DNA of 30,298 bases, from the IMG/VR virus record IMGVR_UViG_648276648_000002, one strand, 5' to 3'. Origin of the DNA: a virus (Duplodnaviria > Heunggongvirae > Uroviricota > Caudoviricetes). Below, piece after piece: positions 916 to 20,141 of this stretch. A model generated the notes under the pieces. That model had not been told where the DNA came from and made no database searches. It saw only the letters and a program-made list of their open reading frames with translations. The translations under genes and the position numbers were made by a program. The first letter of the stretch is position 1; every line of letters begins with the position of its first letter.

Positions 916-1220
916 TATTTCACCTCTTGCTGTGTCATTGTTGAAAAATGGATACCAGCTCGTTGCTGCCAGACGATCCAACCGAGAGTCATATCCCATG
1001 CCATGTATTCGTTATCGCCGTTTTTTGCTCTCCGACGATCTACTAAGTCACCGAAACGCTTTTCCATGAATAATTCATAGGCTTCGCGTTCATCTGGCTC
1101 TACTTCCAGAGATACGAGTGCGATTTCATAAGCACGGCGCTCAATATCGTCTCGAACATCTAGGCTGCTGATTCGTTCTTTGATTTCTTTAATCAGTCCT
1201 TTATTGGTAAATGTGGTCAT
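915..1220 (-). CDS. Early-left operon protein, 101 aa (YfdT-like, CPS-53/KpLE1 type)
   Basis: ORF 915-1220; acidic helical protein; TAATG start/stop coupling with both neighbours; same size and position as recalled K-12 YfdT. Confidence 0.6.
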   Translation of the reverse strand: MTTFTNKGLIKEIKERISSLDVRDDIERRAYEIALVSLEVEPDEREAYELFMEKRFGDLVDRRRAKNGDNEYMAWDMTLGWIVWQQRAGIHFSTMTQQEVK

Positions 1221-1582
1221 TATGCTCCAGCCTCCGGTGCTTTTGGCATTACTGCCCAGTGAGTGATATTGACGTTTTCAAGGTCCCCGACCTGAAATGT
1301 CCACTGCCATTCTCCGGTTTCTTTTTGTCCCCAGGTGTACCAGAGAGAACACCAGCCAATTAGCCAGCCTTCTCCGTTAGCATCGAATAACAAAACACTT
1401 TCATTTGCTGGTGGCAGTTCAGTTGACACTGGTATTGCTTTGTTTTCCTGTGCTGCACATTTAGCTTCAAGCGCATCGAATTTGCGCACTAGGTATTCAG
1501 CATCTGTTTCATTCACTTTCAGATCTCGCGGTACACATCTCCCACGAAGAAACCCTTCCATTTCGAAAACATTCATGCGCAT
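1220..1582 (-). CDS. Early-left operon protein, 120 aa, Trp-rich (YfdS-like; possibly DUF551)
   Basis: ORF 1220-1582, MRMNVFEMEGFLRGRCVPRDLKV...GWLIGWCSLWYTWGQKETGEWQWTFQ; coupled to both flanking genes. Confidence 0.6.
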   Translation of the reverse strand: MRMNVFEMEGFLRGRCVPRDLKVNETDAEYLVRKFDALEAKCAAQENKAIPVSTELPPANESVLLFDANGEGWLIGWCSLWYTWGQKETGEWQWTFQVGDLENVNITHWAVMPKAPEAGA

Positions 1583-2237: not shown

Positions 2238-3062
2238 TCAGGCGGTGAAAGTACCAATAAAGGTTTCTACTTTGCTGTCTTTGAACTTCTCAACAAGCAG
2301 ATCACGAAATTCGTTAGCCATTTCCTCCTGCACTGCTTCCAGCTGAATAATGCGTAGTACCAGTACAGGACGATCGCCAGTGATAATGCTGAGGCGTAAT
2401 TTAAACGGACGTTCTTTCAGACCTTCAAACGGAACGCATTTAAATTCAAATGCCACTGGCATAATGTCTTTGGTCTTCGCTTCGACAGACTCCATCAGGG
2501 AGCGTTTGCCGCTGAAGTCATTATCTTCAAAATCAGCGGTCTGGTTCGCTTCAATTGTGATTTTACGGATCGCCGCAGCCGCTTTGGTTGCCTGAATGGC
2601 GTCACCATTAGCATCAAAGCCCACAAGGTAGTCGGCCCAGTCTTCAATCCATTCTGCCAGTGACTTCTGGGAGTTACGCTCGCCGTTAACAGACAACAGG
2701 GCAGAGAACGGTGCTGTCTTTTTCAGTTTGAGAGTGGCGGTGTTATCTGCGTGACCTGGTTCATCAATAGTACCCAGGTTAAGCACACTGACGGCTCGCA
2801 TATTATCGGCATCGATAAAGCAGCGGGTGCCTTCATCTGCAAGATCTTTAGAATAACGGGTAAAGTCATCGATGCTGGCAGTGGAAAGCGCACCACGGAA
2901 ACGGAAGCGATTTAAATTAAGTTTTTCCAGATCATGAATGCGGAAATTCTCAGGCAATGCCACAGCATCGGCACCAATCTTACTGATAATTTCATTAACA
3001 CCCTGAGCAGAAATAAGGGCATGGATTTGATTAATTGCGGTTGCGTCTAAGTTCTGAGACAT
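2238..3062 (-). CDS. yfdQ: DUF2303/YfdQ-like phage protein (274 aa)
   Basis: ORF 2238-3062; size and operon position match recalled YfdQ of the yfdQRST cluster. Confidence 0.65.
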
Positions 3063-3127: not shown

Positions 3128-3490
3128 TTAACGACCTGCTGCGCGGAGTTTTCCGTCAGGCTCACCGGCAAGAGTCAGTAATTGTCCCTGGTCTTCCTGC
3201 AGAATAGTCAGGCGACCACCGCGATTGACATACATCGGCGTTTCGGTGGTGTCTTCTTCGGAAATTTTCCCGCGGTTAGTCGGGCGAACATATGAGAGTT
3301 TGTGTTTGATTTTCACTCGGTTCTCATCAAACGGTTCGATTTCTAGGTTGAGCGAGACCTTACCTTTGGTTTTCGTGTTCATCACACCGGAAGCGACTTC
3401 ACTGAGAACTGCGCCGATTTTGGTTTCAAATACGCCGCCGTCCAGCTCCCCGATAAATGCCTGCACATCAGTACTGCGTTCGCTAGCCAT
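3128..3490 (-). CDS. Early-left operon protein, 120 aa (YfdP-like?); first gene of the leftward operon
   Basis: Internal ATG preceded by GAGGAG (GAGGAGCAGCAAAATG) within ORF 3128-3808; the upstream 106 codons of that ORF look non-coding. Confidence 0.6.
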   Translation of the reverse strand: MASERSTDVQAFIGELDGGVFETKIGAVLSEVASGVMNTKTKGKVSLNLEIEPFDENRVKIKHKLSYVRPTNRGKISEEDTTETPMYVNRGGRLTILQEDQGQLLTLAGEPDGKLRAAGR

Positions 3491-3959
3491 TTTGCTGCTC
3501 CTCATCATATCGACCCTGCAAGGTCGGTTAGTTTCTCCACAAAACAGAGAAGAACACCTGCGGTGACTGCCGCCCGGATGGATTGGGTTATGAGCCCGTC
3601 GTCCGGTGATGCTCTTCTCTGTTTTGTAAAAAGGACGGTACCAGCCGGAAGCAAGGGTACAAGCTGGTACCGCCAGGACTACACACAGCATAAAGTTGTG
3701 GTGCCGGGTGCCTCCCGGTGCCTGGCGAAGGTTGCACACCAGGCGGGTGGGTATCCACAGAAGGTCGACTGTCAGCCTCAACCTTAACCCGCGTGCGCTG
3801 AGCCGCATTCACCACAACGCTAAGGATTCTCTCTGGTTGAAAATACTTAGCTGTTATGTGCCTGCTTTTAGCCACATCAGGCGAGGTGGACCTAGTTATT
3901 CCCCAACAACAAGGATTTGGTTAATCTGGATATCCCCAACAACTAGCTGAGTATTCAAC
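3491..3959. other. GC-rich, hairpin-dense noncoding block; candidate structured RNA or leader/regulatory element
   Basis: No convincing ORF. 15-bp perfect inverted repeat ACAAAACAGAGAAGA (3539-3553) / TCTTCTCTGTTTTGT (3613-3627); a roughly 10-bp stem around GGTACCAGC / GCTGGTACC (about 3636-3671); CCGGG/CCCGG and GCCTGG/CCAGGC stems and GGTGCC repeats near 3697-3745. Confidence 0.4.
3900..3943. repeat. Direct repeat TCCCCAACAAC x2 (33-bp spacing) just upstream of the 3960 ORF; possible regulator-binding sites
   Basis: TCCCCAACAAC at 3900-3910 and 3933-3943, counted back from the ORF start at 3960. Confidence 0.4.
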
Positions 3960-4481
3960 GTGATAGCTGAACTGTCTGCGGCTATGGCCGCTATAAAGGA
4001 GACTGCCGGTCTTGCTAAGGTTATTAATGACGCGAAAACGGATGCAGAAGTTAAAGCTGCAACCATTGAACTCCAGAACAAACTAATCACGCTTCAGGCA
4101 GAATGCTTCTCTCTTGGCGATGCGATCCGCCTTCGTGATGAAGAGGTGATGCATCTCAAAGCAAAAATTGCAGAGTTTGAAGATTTTTGTGCCAAGGTAG
4201 AAGGATATGTCCTTGATCAGCTTGACTCTGGTGCTTTTGTTTACTCTAAAAATGAAATTGTGAGTGGAAAAGAAATAACTGTGCATCTGTGCCCACTTTG
4301 TTATTCCAAAAATATAAAATCGATACTTCATCCGCTTCCAGTAGGTAAAACTTCTCATTTTCTTACAAGCCGTTGCCTTCACTGTGAAAATAAATTTCTT
4401 ATGGAAAAAAATCCGATGTACGAACGACCAAGATCATTACGTGAGTTGGGGCGAGATCTGAATTCGCCTTGGATTCCTTAA
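3960..4481 (+). CDS. Uncharacterized 173-aa protein: N-terminal coiled-coil, C-terminal Cys4 zinc ribbon (CPLC...CLHC); AT-rich accessory gene in the rex-equivalent position
   Basis: Long ORF in AT-rich DNA, convergent with cI and the leftward operon, followed by a rho-independent terminator. GTG start at 3960 (first ATG at 3984); ribosome-binding site weak. Confidence 0.6.
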   Translation: MIAELSAAMAAIKETAGLAKVINDAKTDAEVKAATIELQNKLITLQAECFSLGDAIRLRDEEVMHLKAKIAEFEDFCAKVEGYVLDQLDSGAFVYSKNEIVSGKEITVHLCPLCYSKNIKSILHPLPVGKTSHFLTSRCLHCENKFLMEKNPMYERPRSLRELGRDLNSPWIP

Positions 4482-4523
4482 ATCTTGCATTGGTTGGATG
4501 ATACCCAGATTGTTAAAGAGCTA

Positions 4524-4546
4524 AGCGTCCTGTAGGGCGCTTTTTT
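4524..4546 (+). terminator. Rho-independent terminator downstream of the 3960-4481 ORF
   Basis: Hairpin AGCGTCC-TGTA-GGGCGCT followed by TTTTTT, about 43 nt after the stop codon. Confidence 0.7.
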
Positions 4547-4632
4547 GTTGCTAACGAATCATCCTGGACTTTATATGCCCCAGGCGGCTACTTCGTGGGC
4601 GTCCTGCCTGTTCGTTATCTTTGATATAAAAT

Positions 4633-4682
4633 CTAACTTAACTTAGTTATTATGGCAAGAGAAAACACCAAACTTTTCTTAG
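4633..4682. promoter_or_regulatory. Candidate left operator/promoter region (OL-like) downstream of cI
   Basis: CTAACTTAACTTAG (4633-4646) and CAAACTTTTCTTAG (4669-4682) share the CTAAC-N4-CTTAG pattern seen between cI and cro. Confidence 0.5.
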
Positions 4683-4711
4683 TTCGGTGCCTTAGTTAGA
4701 GAAGAGAGGCC

Positions 4712-6566: not shown

Positions 6567-6586
6567 AGGTCGGTCATGAGCACTAA
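6407..6586 (+). CDS. Small protein (~59 aa) coupled to the O-like gene start
   Basis: TTG start at 6407 preceded by AAGGAG (6393-6398) inside ORF 6365-6586; sequence [58 protein letters not shown]; stop overlaps the O-like start. Confidence 0.45.
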
Positions 6587-7517
6587 ATTAACCGGCTATG
6601 TATGGGATGGTTGCGCAGCGTCAGGCATGAAATTATCCAGCGTGGCAATTATGGCCCGCCTGGCTGATTTCAGTAATGACGAAGGTGTGTGCTGGCCATC
6701 GATTGAAACCATTGCCCGCCAGATTGGCGCGGGGATGAGTACCGTCAGAACGGCTATCGCACGGCTGGAAGCAGAAGGCTGGTTAACGCGTAAGGCGCGT
6801 CGCCAGGGTAACCGCAATGCGTCGAATGTTTATCAGCTTAACGTTGCGAAGCTTCAGGCAGCGGCATTTTCTCAACTGTCAGATTCTGACCCGTCAAAAT
6901 CTGACGCATCAAAATCTGACCCGTCAAAATTTGATGCGTCGAAATCTGGCAAAAAAGCGGGTTTTCACCCGTCAGAATCTGGCGGGGATCCGTCAGTAAA
7001 ATCAAAACATGATCCGTCAGATAAAAAACCTTCTCGTCCGGACTCTTCGCAACCGGACACGCAGACGGCTGAACAGGATTTTTTAACTCGCCATCCTGAT
7101 GCGGTTGTATTCAGCCCTAAAAAACGCCAGTGGGGGACGCAGGATGATTTGACCTGCGCACAGTGGCTCTGGAAAAAAATCATCGCCCTGTACGAGCAGG
7201 CTGCCGAATGTGACGGCGAGGTGGTTCGTCCCAAAGAACCGAACTGGACAGCCTGGGCAAACGAAATTCGCCTGATGTGTGTGCAGGATGGTCGTACTCA
7301 CAAACAAATCTGCGAGATTTACAGCCGCGTCAGCCGCGATCCGTTCTGGTGCCGTAACGTGCTCAGCCCGTCGAAGCTGCGGGAAAAATGGGATGAGCTT
7401 TCCCTGCGCTTATCGCCGTCCGTCAGCACGTACACAGAAAAACGCGAAGACCCGTACTTCAAAGCCAGTTACGACAATGTGGACTACAGCCAGATCCCGG
7501 CAGGATTCAGGGGGTGA
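6576..7517 (+). CDS. Replication initiator (lambda O-like, HTH N-domain) with internal iteron origin
   Basis: 313 aa; GAGG ribosome-binding site; N-terminal winged-HTH-like region; central repetitive SDSDPSKSDASKSDPSKFDASKS segment encoded by the iterons. Confidence 0.8.
   Translation: MSTKLTGYVWDGCAASGMKLSSVAIMARLADFSNDEGVCWPSIETIARQIGAGMSTVRTAIARLEAEGWLTRKARRQGNRNASNVYQLNVAKLQAAAFSQLSDSDPSKSDASKSDPSKFDASKSGKKAGFHPSESGGDPSVKSKHDPSDKKPSRPDSSQPDTQTAEQDFLTRHPDAVVFSPKKRQWGTQDDLTCAQWLWKKIIALYEQAAECDGEVVRPKEPNWTAWANEIRLMCVQDGRTHKQICEIYSRVSRDPFWCRNVLSPSKLREKWDELSLRLSPSVSTYTEKREDPYFKASYDNVDYSQIPAGFRG
6876..7025. repeat. Iteron array / candidate phage origin inside the initiator gene
   Basis: Repeated CCGTCAAAATCTGAC / GCATCAAAATCTGAC / CCGTCAGAATCTGG-type units, analogous to lambda ori within O. 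Confidence 0.65.
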
Positions 7518-11786: not shown

Positions 11787-12884
11787 TTAGAACTGGTAAA
11801 CCAGACCTACAGCAACGATGTCATCAGTGCTTACACCGAGTGCTTTAGTGAAGTCATTTTTGTCAAGCAGGTTGATTTTGTAATCAACGAAAGTAGACAT
11901 ATTTTTGTTAAAGTAATAGGTTGCACCTACATCAACATATTTGACTAAGTCCTGATCGCCCCATACTCCAAGATCCTTACCTTTAGATTGCAGGTAAGCA
12001 ACGGACGGACGCAGACCGAAATCGAACTGATATTGTGCAACAGCTTCGAAGTTTTGGGCTTTATTAGCAACGAAGTGATCAGCAAATACAGTCATATTCT
12101 GGGTTTCAGAATAGGTAGTGGCCAGGTAAATGTTGTTAGCGTCATATTTCAGACCTGCGGCCCAAACTTCTGCATTTTTACCGGAAGCAAATACTTCAGG
12201 AAGAACTTTCCCTGCATTAACTTGAGTGTCGGTACGATCAGATTTCGCATAAGTTGCACCGATACCGAATCCTTCGTATTCATAGGTAGCAGAGAAACCG
12301 AAGCCATCACCGTTACCTTCAGTGTAGTTATCGAAATCGCTACGATCGTTTTTGCCTTGGTACTGAGCAGCAAAGTTCAGACCATCAACCAGACCAAAGA
12401 AGTCGTTGTTACGATAGGTTGCAACACCAGTTGCACGTTGAGTCATGAACACGTCGGTTTGAGTCCAAGTGTCACCACCGAATTCTGGCAGGACGTCAGT
12501 CCACGCACCGATGTCGTATGCTACACCGTAGTTACGGCCGTAATCGATGGAGCCGTAGTCACCGAATTTCAGGCCAGCGAAGGCAAGACGGGTTTTATCT
12601 TTGGAGGAACCTTGAGATTCAGCGCGGTTGCCTTTGAATTCATATTCCCACTGACCGAAACCAGTCAGTTGATCGTTGATTTGGGTTTCACCTTTGAAGC
12701 CAAGACGGGCATAAGTAGTATCACCATCATCTGCATCATTAGAGGAGAAGTAGTGCTTAGCATTAACTTTCCCGTACAGATCCAGCTTGTTACTGTCTTT
12801 ATTATAAATTTCAGCTGCCTGAGCAGACATCGCCATCAGTACTGATGCAGCTACAGCAGAAATTGCCACTGTTAATTTTTTCAT
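11787..12884 (-). CDS. nmpC: Outer-membrane general porin, OmpC/OmpF family (phage Lc/NmpC-type lysogenic-conversion porin); intact
   Basis: Signal peptide [23 protein letters not shown], then [16 protein letters not shown]..., ending in the C-terminal Phe typical of porins; start taken at the internal Met of ORF 11787-12944. Confidence 0.9.
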
Positions 12885-13253
12885 CGTGAGCCCTTTTTTT
12901 GAACTATTATTAAAAAATGATGTCACTGCGCGATAAATATTCATCTAATCAATGTGATTATTTCAAGATGTAAGTTTTGGTTTCTCGTTTGATTTGTGAA
13001 GTAGATCTCTATTTTTATCTGAACTTTTTTCTATCGAATCCTATTCATGGCTCTTGGCTGAATAAAAATAAATCTATTAGCCAATTTATATTAACGGCTG
13101 TTATTTATAAGCGCTCTATAATTTGAAGGTTCAATTTAAACCAGCTAAAAATAACACTGGAAATTATTTGTTGGTTATTTGTTGAGATTTGCTTATGTAT
13201 TTGTAGTGGTGTTTTCAATACTCGGTAGCATTCTCGCAAATATCATTTAGTGG

Positions 13254-13456: not shown

Positions 13457-13672
13457 ATGAAATCCATGGATAAGTTAACAACGGGTGTCGCCTATGGCAC
13501 CTCAGCAGGTAGTGCCGGGTACTGGTTTTTACAGCTGCTAGATAAAGTCACGCCCTCACAGTGGGCGGCAATTGGAGTGCTGGGTAGCCTGGTATTTGGC
13601 CTGCTGACGTACCTGACAAACCTTTATTTCAAGATTAAAGAAGATAAGCGTAAGGCTGCGAGAGGTGAATAA
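13457..13672 (+). CDS. S: Holin (phage 21 S21-type pinholin)
   Basis: 71 aa, [55 protein letters not shown]... Confidence 0.9.
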
Positions 13673-14169
13673 TGTCGCCATCATTACGCAAGGCTGTAGC
13701 AGCTGCTATTGGTGGTGGGGCTGTTGCCATAGCGTCTGTGCTCATCACTGGTCCGAGTGGTGACGATGGTCTGGAAGGTGTCAGCTACATACCATATAAA
13801 GATATCGTTGGCGTATGGACTGTATGTCACGGGCATACAGGAAAAGACATCATTCCCGGTAAAACGTATACCGAAGCAGAATGCAAAGCCCTCCTGAATA
13901 AAGACCTTGCCACTGTCGCCAGACAAATTAACCCGTACATCAAAGTCGATATACCGGAAACAACGCGCGGCGCTCTTTACTCGTTCGTCTACAACGTGGG
14001 TGCTGGCAATTTCAGAATATCGACGCTTCTTCGCAAAATAAACCAGGGTGATATCAAAGGCGCATGTGATCAGCTACGTCGCTGGACATATGCTGGCGGT
14101 AAGCAATGGAAAGGTCTCATGACTCGTCGTGAGATTGAGCGTGAAATCTGTTTGTGGGGTCAGCAATGA
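13672..14169 (+). CDS. R: SAR endolysin (phage 21 R-type lysozyme)
   Basis: 165 aa; N-terminal signal-anchor-release helix ([18 protein letters not shown]); start overlaps the holin stop (TAATG). Confidence 0.9.
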
Positions 14170-14627
14170 ACAGAGTAACCGCGATTATCTCCGCTCTGGT
14201 TATCTGCATCATCGTCTGCCTGTCATGGGCTGTTAATCATTACCGTGATAACGCCATTACCTACAAAGCCCAGCGCGACAAAAATGCCAGAGAACTGAAG
14301 CTGGCGAACGCGGCAATTACTGACATGCAGATGCGCCAGCGTGATGTTGCTGCACTGGATGAAAAATACACGAAGGAGTTAGCTAATGCGAAAGCTGAAA
14401 ATGATGCTCTGCGTGATGATGTTGCCGCTGGTCGTCGTCGGTTGCACATCAAAGCAGTCTGTCAGTCAGTGCGTGAAGCCACCACCGCCTCCGGCGTGGA
14501 TAATGCAGCCTCCCCCCGACTGGCAGACACCGCTGAACGGGATTATTTCACCCTCAGAGAGAGGCTGATCACTATGCAAAAACAACTGGAAGGAACCCAG
14601 AAGTATATTAATGAGCAGTGCAGATAG
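14166..14627 (+). CDS. Rz: Spanin, inner-membrane subunit Rz
   Basis: Internal ATG of ORF 14154-14627; N-terminal transmembrane helix followed by coiled-coil. Confidence 0.9.
14386..14568 (+). CDS. Rz1: Spanin, outer-membrane lipoprotein Rz1, embedded in Rz in the +1 frame
   Basis: Lipobox LVVVGC, Pro-rich [15 protein letters not shown]; entirely inside Rz. Confidence 0.85.
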
Positions 14628-15894: not shown

Positions 15895-16414
15895 ATGGAA
15901 GTCAACAAAAAGCAGCTGGCTGACATTTTCGGTGCGAGTATCCGTACCATTCAGAACTGGCAGGAACAGGGAATGCCCGTTCTGCGAGGCGGTGGCAAGG
16001 GTAATGAGGTGCTTTATGACTCTGCCGCCGTCATAAAATGGTATGCCGAAAGGGATGCTGAAATTGAGAACGAAAAGCTGCGCCGGGAGGTTGAAGAACT
16101 GCGGCAGGCCAGCGAGGCAGATCTCCAGCTAGGGACTATTGAGTACGAACGCCATCGACTTACGCGTGCGCAGGCCGACGCACAGGAACTGAAGAATGCC
16201 AGAGACTCCGCTGAAGTGGTGGAAACCGCATTCTGTACTTTCGTATTGTCGCGGATCGCAGGTGAAATTGCCAGTATTCTCGACGGGCTCCCCCTGTCGG
16301 TGCAGCGGCGTTTTCCGGAACTGGAAAACCGACATGTTGATTTCCTGAAACGGGATATCATCAAAGCCATGAACAAAGCAGCCGCGCTGGATGAACTGAT
16401 ACCGGGGTTGCTGA

Positions 16415-16440
<26 letters not shown>
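15895..16440 (+). CDS. nu1: Terminase small subunit Nu1
   Basis: 181 aa, MEVNKKQLADIFGASIRTIQNWQEQGMPVLRGGGKGNEVLYDSAAVIKWYAERD...; lambda Nu1 from memory. Confidence 0.95.

Positions 16441-20121
<3,681 letters not shown>

Positions 20122-20141
<20 letters not shown>

Follow-up and report, generated by a model that had tools for sequence, protein, structure and literature searches.

A divergent Rip1-family gene, probably for abortive infection, in the sieB position of an Escherichia coli prophage

The present study asks what is encoded by a single gene that runs against its neighbors between the repressor gene cI and the early-left genes of a tailed-phage genome. The window, i.e. the whole stretch of 30,298 nucleotides that was analyzed (Caudoviricetes, IMG/VR record IMGVR_UViG_648276648_000002), is 100% identical to a prophage of E. 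coli LH50-c that adjoins tRNA-Arg. The annotation there calls the gene product hypothetical protein WP_000559913.1, a name of which no mention was found in the literature searched. The early-left genes of this prophage are of the CPS-53/SfV type, and its packaging and head genes (Nu1, gpA, a lambda-family portal, an S49 protease and major capsid protein E) are lambda-like. An earlier note, made from the letters of the window without database searches, had guessed at phage exclusion or abortive infection for the gene, and homology to the Rip1 family now supports this as the most likely function. We read the ORF as a divergent Rip1-family member which, arguing from homology for its action, is probably a single-protein abortive-infection defense of the prophage that works through a ring-templated membrane pore.

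As had been claimed, the ORF is opposite in strand to its surroundings. It is the only plus-strand gene between yfdP–yfdT and cI, with yfdP, yfdQ, yfdR, yfdS and yfdT to its left and the gene for a 208-aa LexA/cI-type repressor to its right, all on the minus strand (Table 1). The start codon, previously unclear, is now settled as the GTG at 3960 from the N-termini of homologues, which are mostly MIAEL or MITEL with a few MVDI, from codons 2–8, where differences from the PhiR29_1 allele are mostly synonymous, and from motif spacing, in that among the matches listed all alleles of the window's clade in other viral contigs start 95–96 nt past a conserved upstream motif. Identity with PhiR29_1 drops from about 99% to about 70% precisely at 3945–3960. 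An ATG start at 3984 was ruled out by the same synonymous changes and N-termini. The 242-aa annotation in PhiR29_1 was rejected as an over-extension because the flank into which it reaches is conserved non-coding sequence, found also upstream of unrelated cargo, because a TGA lies in frame at 3948–3950, upstream of the GTG, and because homologues mostly start with MIAEL or MITEL. Base composition, on which the gene had been thought more AT-rich than both flanks, bears this out on one side: the ORF has 41.4% GC, which is the 5.7th percentile among 522-bp segments of the stretch, against 53.2% in the left flank and 52.3% in the whole window, but on the right AT content is as high as in the ORF in cI (43.2% GC), in cro (43.3%) and in the operator region (33.7%), and therefore the compositional contrast is one-sided.

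Table 1. Window positions of the gene, the parts of its product and the surrounding elements (aa, residues of the product; AF2, AlphaFold2).
Feature	Position	Strand	Basis and details
STnc100/PasD-like prophage sRNA	3625..3848	-	Rfam RF02076, 42.4 bits (gathering 47), E 6e-8, full model length
Conserved block GTGCCTGCTTTTAGCCACATCAGGCGAGGTGG, 32 nt	3858..3889	+	Alignments
Candidate promoter/leader	3899..3943	+	Direct repeats TCCCCAACAAC at 3900-3910 and 3933-3943 flank the candidate -10
Candidate -10 TAATCT	3922-3927	+	Alignment; weak -35 TTCCCC at 3899-3904
rip1-like CDS	3960..4481	+	ORF list; 173 aa, GTG start, TAA stop
N-terminal helical half, aa 2-79	3963..4196	+	AF2 helices 2-24 and 28-79
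C-terminal beta/zinc-ribbon domain, aa 84-150	4209..4409	+	AF2 strands
Zinc-ribbon Cys111, Cys114, Cys139, Cys142	codons 4290, 4299, 4374, 4383	+	Alignment
Clade-specific C-terminal tail, aa 151-173	4410..4478	+	Alignments; short helix 160-166
boxA-like GCTCTTTAACAA	4510..4521	- (pL-sense)	Directly past the hairpin; sole exact match in the window
Intrinsic terminator	4523..4548	+	Hairpin 4523-4542, 8-bp stem, loop of 4, then T6
OL/pL region	4630..4684	-	Promoter-like site overlapping operators
pL-like promoter TTGCCA-17-TAGATT	4658..4630	-	Promoter scan; overlaps the 4633 operator
Operator CTAACTTAACTTAG	4633-4646	OL	Motif scan
Operator CAAACTTTTCTTAG	4669-4682	OL	Motif scan

The protein had not been assignable to any family from its sequence alone; profile searches and structure prediction now place it in a known one with a solved structure. 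Searches of Pfam, NCBIfam and PADLOC returned weak coiled-coil noise, and PADLOC-DB 2023, which predates Rip1, gave one weak below-threshold match, to typeIV_DinG (E 0.023). In PHROGs the protein matches phrog_1244, annotated as function unknown, at E 2.7e-52, and the Rip1 protein of phage HK446 matches the same group at E 2.2e-53. There were 167 homologues at E ≤ 1e-3 in a 90%-clustered database, with named sources mostly in Enterobacterales, and the named homologues among them are all labelled hypothetical or uncharacterised. In a 50%-clustered library, a clade profile built from 36 of the 167 matched 2494 cluster representatives (E ≤ 1e-3), 774 of them at E ≤ 1e-10, and against the PDB it matched one solved structure, chain L of 9oox, which is Rip1 (E 3.7e-20; residues 5–151 of the window protein against 15–160). 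The single sequence also matches this chain, by phmmer at E 1.8e-9 and by BLASTP at E 2e-13. The entry, a cryo-EM structure with 12 Rip1 chains, shows HK446 Rip1 bound to the small terminase of T6. An AlphaFold2 model from the homologue alignment had a pLDDT of 91.9, and in Foldseek searches with it significant matches in the PDB were limited to the Rip1 chains 9oox_L and 9oox_M.

The likeness to Rip1, both that of HK446 and that of Pseudomonas aeruginosa prophages, thus comprises phrog_1244 and near full-length homology of sequence and fold, and in addition a size of about 165–175 aa, an N-terminal helical half, a C-terminal Cys4 zinc ribbon (CxxC...CxxC) and the status of a stand-alone, single opposite-strand accessory gene of a prophage. 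The equivalents in Pseudomonas Mu-like phages, JBD30_030 and orf25 of DMS3/D3112, were matched at 29–30% identity (E 1e-12); JBD30_030 lies on the opposite strand, flanked by two phage genes, of which that for a 165-aa protein matches DUF1804/HTH in Pfam and that for a 549-aa protein has no match there. In a 142-member alignment, identity of the window protein is 24% to HK446 Rip1 and 31% to JBD30_030, and between these two it is 30%. With 24–31% identity to the two reference proteins the window protein therefore belongs to a clade apart from characterized Rip1, from which it also differs by a tail of some 20 additional residues and by Cys49, which is invariant in the clade and absent from HK446 Rip1. 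The protein is thus a divergent member of the Rip1 family, a placement for which its sequence and fold, the conserved cysteines and the genomic slot give good support.

The helical N-terminal half and C-terminal Cys4 zinc ribbon that had been proposed are borne out by the AlphaFold2 model and by conservation of the cysteines. Cys111, 114, 139 and 142 do not vary among the 36 sequences of the clade alignment and are kept in 142, 142, 141 and 140 of 142 diverse members, respectively, including HK446 Rip1 and JBD30_030. The N-terminal half consists of an Ala/Gly-rich first helix followed by a long second helix. A transmembrane segment is usually taken at a 19-residue hydropathy of about 1.6; the maximum in the window protein is 1.06, compared with 1.28 in HK446 Rip1. 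Amphipathicity of the first helix is modest (muH up to 0.34), with hydropathy and moment comparable to those of HK446 Rip1 and JBD30_030. Within the clade, identity to the window protein is 73–82% in the N-terminal helices and 30–47% in the C-terminal parts (zinc ribbon and tail), and entropy peaks lie between the cysteine pairs and in the tail. HK446 Rip1 ends 4 residues past the end of its alignment at window residue 151; the tail of the window protein is modeled with a pLDDT of 62–83. By analogy with the review of Rip1, the helical half is presumed to be the pore-forming part, and the C-terminal domain, the variable half, is presumed to be the ring-sensing part. Conserved N-terminal helices joined to a variable ribbon and tail would fit a constant effector with a diversifying sensor.

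The gene had been assigned to the slot that carries rex in lambda, but the arrangement of operators does not agree with this. Four copies of the operator motif CTAAS-N4-CTTAG were found in the 30 kb of the window, where 0.03 are expected by chance, two of them (5361 and 5410) between cI and cro and two (4633 and 4669) between cI and the ORF. With the second pair of operators and a pL-like promoter separating it from cI, the ORF lies past pL and runs antisense to early-left transcription. Immunity-specific sequence starts at about 4617 and co-varies rightwards with cI type among related phages. On the lambda map rexAB lies between cI and OL and is co-transcribed with cI, whereas sieB lies past pL and N on the opposite strand, and HK446 rip1 has the same position as lambda sieB. 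The window gene occupies the sieB position, not the rex slot. RexAB, expressed by the prophage from its immunity region, is an abortive-infection system with the membrane as its site of action. It has two components, whereas the window gene is single, and RexAB-type membership was rejected on the location of the ORF beyond OL/pL, its opposite strand and the lack of homology to RexA or RexB. SieB of lambda and P22 (PF14163), a prophage-expressed abortive-infection gene, shares slot, orientation and a homologous upstream region of about 105 nt with the window gene, but is an integral membrane protein and unrelated: the window protein had no match to PF14163 at E ≤ 10, and its maximum hydropathy is below the value usual for transmembrane segments. 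HK446 rip1 shares both the slot downstream of pL and a homologous upstream region; the window prophage differs from HK446 in having no N gene between pL and the slot, and no N-like ORF was found in it between pL and yfdP.

About 105 nt upstream of the ORF align with the sequences upstream of lambda sieB, HK446 rip1, the rip1-like gene of 689R2 and an unrelated cargo of 689R6 (window 3858–3943, lambda locus 455–600, HK446 locus 3340–3460). The features in common are the 32-nt block GTGCCTGCTTTTAGCCACATCAGGCGAGGTGG, two CCCCWACAR direct repeats 33–34 nt apart and, between them, a TAAnnT hexamer, of which the T, the A and the final T are invariant in the five-sequence alignment and 50–70% conserved in 72 unique upstream sequences. 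The 32-nt block and the repeats precede every plus-strand cargo examined in the slot. Scans for consensus sigma-70 sites upstream of the ORF found no plus-strand promoter, and the candidate pair TAATCT/TTCCCC is put forward from the alignment as an inference only. The upstream element is a candidate promoter, leader or sas-like antisense RNA, P22 sieB being controlled by a cis-antisense RNA, sas. Within it GCCTG/CAGGC and CCAC/GTGG could pair in pseudoknot-like fashion.

Downstream, the clean terminator seen earlier is real and strand-specific, but it belongs to a common flank and not to this gene exclusively. In folds of the RNA from 4505–4560 the plus strand gave -15.6 kcal/mol with an 8-bp stem, whereas the minus strand gave -10.4 kcal/mol and has no U tract, and thus the hairpin terminates plus-strand transcription only. 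It lies within the right flank (4505–4616), which is 99% identical in PhiR29_1, where the allele is divergent, and also aligns near-identically in 689R6, where the cargo is unrelated; SfV is without the hairpin. The adjoining GCTCTTTAACAA presumably resembles the rrn/lambdoid boxA consensus, and hairpin and 12-mer together may also act in antitermination of the early-left leader, as a nutL-like or rrn-type site.

Several features of the prophage outside the gene were recorded. Conserved non-coding sequence in the left flank, between yfdP and the rip1-like gene, contains an STnc100-like element that was matched also in 689R6 and SfV; it is below the Rfam gathering threshold, at which a scan of the window gave no match. 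A pseudogene annotated by PGAP as a frameshifted hypothetical protein (3505–3815) covers this stretch and may be a misannotated RNA, and a 2026 preprint ties STnc100 to PasD sRNAs. In 689R2 the rip1-like gene is immediately preceded by an RprA-like Rfam match (2790–2903, minus strand; 50.2 bits, gathering 70, E 8.5e-4), in the place taken by the STnc100-like element in the window. The window also carries a 25-nt inverted repeat, 84% complementary with a 39-nt spacer (3539–3627), immediately in front of yfdP, with the sRNA-like element on its far side. Upstream of the lysis genes (lysozyme 13672–14169, Rz 14154–14627) and on the other strand lies a gene for a 385-aa Gram-negative porin (11787–12944, minus strand; Porin_1, E 6e-157), by appearance a prophage accessory gene of the nmpC type. 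The O-like replication protein (313 aa, 6576–7517) contains the repeat SDSDPSKSDASKSDPSKFDASKS at about 6870–6960, which implies short tandem DNA repeats in its gene, as expected for origin iterons. In the LH50-c locus there are internal stops in the integrase (126–1289; window about 1–1000) and in yfdS (1821–2183; window 1220–1582) and the excisionase-like gene is partial, so that the prophage may not excise; the rip1-like gene is intact.

Comparison of the slot across related phages revealed differing cargo, including SieB, alleles of Rip1 and others. A scan of IMG/VR for the 32-nt block gave at least 120 loci, 118 of them with at least 400 nt downstream, and among the matches listed 98 of these 118 assessable loci had a plus-strand ORF of at least 50 aa starting 30–220 nt past the motif. 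In raw locus counts, redundancy included, the cargo among the matches listed was SieB at no fewer than 26 loci (clusters of 18 and 8; E 1e-23 to 1e-29 against PF14163), a 144-aa phrog_5286-like protein at 22 or more, Rip1-family proteins at 19 or more confirmed by profile (a BLAST cluster of 21), a predicted membrane protein of 159–166 aa at six or more, and small miscellaneous ORFs at the rest. Of the 19 Rip1-family loci among these matches, 11 belong to the window clade, 5 to that of HK446 and 3 to neither. Cargos other than SieB and Rip1 occupy 2060–2672 in 689R6, 2192–2488 in SfV, where orf33 is phrog_3195, and other IMG/VR loci; the 144-aa protein is accompanied by a 67-aa phrog_1744 protein on the other strand. 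None of phrog_5286/phrog_1744, phrog_3195 and the 159–166-aa membrane protein is in PADLOC 2023, and all are candidate defense genes.

The earlier suggestion of a horizontally exchanged accessory gene agrees with the relation between the window and PhiR29_1, whose flanks are 98–99% identical with a deeply diverged allele between them. The two alleles have a dS of about 1.5, which is saturated, and a dN/dS of 0.25, a coding-like substitution pattern, and with near-identical flanks this points to cassette exchange under purifying selection. The exact allele is found in 53–54 of 5426 complete E. coli genomes (about 1%), and the flank sequence in 2893.

How such a protein may act can be drawn from Rip1 (ring interacting pore 1), for which the primary source is Patel et al. 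(2026, Nature 651:1060), used here as summarised in a review (PMC13434031) and a meeting report. According to these summaries, Rip1 is a prophage protein, non-toxic alone, with homologues widespread in proteobacterial prophages, and its members protect lysogens by forming pores once phage ring proteins trigger them. Escape mutations fall in the portal of Pseudomonas phages and the small terminase of E. coli phages. The N-terminal part is described as an amphipathic helix and ring contact as made by the C-terminal half, with 12 Rip1 monomers surrounding an 11-mer small terminase, and the pore permeabilises liposomes and cells, such that the infected cell dies prematurely (PMC13434031). For the allele in the window we infer lysogen expression, trigger, pore formation and defense phenotype by homology. 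In a lysogen, with pL repressed, the gene would be transcribed from the sieB-type upstream region to the plus-strand terminator, and before infection the protein would be inactive and monomeric, either soluble or peripheral. Once a heterologous phage entered late expression, its small terminase or portal ring would be bound by the variable beta/zinc-ribbon domain and would template a ring of Rip1, as 12 Rip1 chains surround the 11-mer small terminase in 9oox. The conserved N-terminal helices, so gathered, would form an inner-membrane pore and the cell would be permeabilised ahead of progeny maturation. It may be speculated that after induction antisense pL transcription through the gene damps it in the prophage's own lytic growth.

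An alternative explanation, which we consider unlikely, is a Rip1-family protein that makes no pore but sequesters the incoming terminase or portal ring and blocks packaging, or that serves packaging or lysis timing of its own prophage. The link to Rip1 is one of homology, at low identity and with a C-terminal tail in which the clade differs from HK446 Rip1, and the prophage has ring formers of its own (Nu1 small terminase, 15895–16440; lambda-type portal, 18540–20141). However, the helical half, which is the pore part in Rip1, is the best conserved part of the protein in the clade and aligns with Rip1, and the gene sits in an exchangeable accessory slot shared with SieB, away from the packaging genes. 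It is less probable still that the gene is an inactive or decaying passenger of a defective prophage, as might be thought from the annotation of integrase and yfdS as pseudogenes in the identical LH50-c locus; the ORF itself is intact, at least 99% identical in 53 genomes, and has kept all four cysteines under a dN/dS of 0.25 with saturated dS.

Other zinc-bearing proteins offer partial parallels to the ring-templated pore that we favor. RAZR (PD-T7-4) is a zinc-finger sensor activated by assembling around large phage rings such as the portal (Zhang et al. 2026, PMC13017515). It resembles Rip1 in the principle of zinc-finger sensing of phage ring proteins, but its effector is a HEPN RNase (DUF4145) and not a pore, and no match of sequence or fold to the window protein was seen. 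A regulator like CdsZ, CT398 (PDB 4ilo) or FlgZ, with coiled coil and zinc ribbon and with an ATPase or sigma factor of host or phage as its binding partner, would share this general architecture but is very improbable, as those are secretion and flagellar regulators with unlike biology, and the CdsZ-type assignment (NF047363) was rejected at 11.9 bits against an NCBIfam cutoff of 275 (E 0.11), i.e. with no significant sequence relationship. That the ORF is spurious, in a region antisense to the early-left transcript that would be non-coding pL leader or belong to an antisense 99-aa ORF (4083–4382), is refuted by the 167 and 2494 homologues at E ≤ 1e-3 in the 90%- and 50%-clustered databases, the confident fold prediction and the coding-like substitution pattern.

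Beyond the Rip1-type gene itself, we tentatively offer a wider reading, in which the sieB position would be a plug-in defense hotspot with a shared expression platform, the uncharacterized cargos would be new anti-phage genes, and the window clade would sense a ring trigger different from that of HK446 and Pseudomonas Rip1. The platform would be the upstream block of about 105 nt with its direct repeats and, in some phages, the terminator overlapping the boxA-like site; the candidate anti-phage genes would be the 144-aa phrog_5286 protein with the 67-aa phrog_1744 protein, phrog_3195 and a 164-aa membrane protein.

The gene is not a new system but a divergent member of the known Rip1 family, and present understanding of the mechanism is unchanged; the novelty that remains is modest and consists of a clade with an extra tail and of the diversity of cargo in the sieB slot. 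The assignment gives a likely function to the hypothetical protein WP_000559913.1, present in about 1% of complete E. coli genomes, and widens the Rip1 family to a clade 24–31% identical to the references compared, which might serve to trace how trigger specificity is set by the variable zinc-ribbon domain. Rip1 alleles, SieB and several other genes are also shown to replace one another downstream of a single conserved element in the early-left operon, and this element is a simple sequence handle for finding more candidates for prophage defense.
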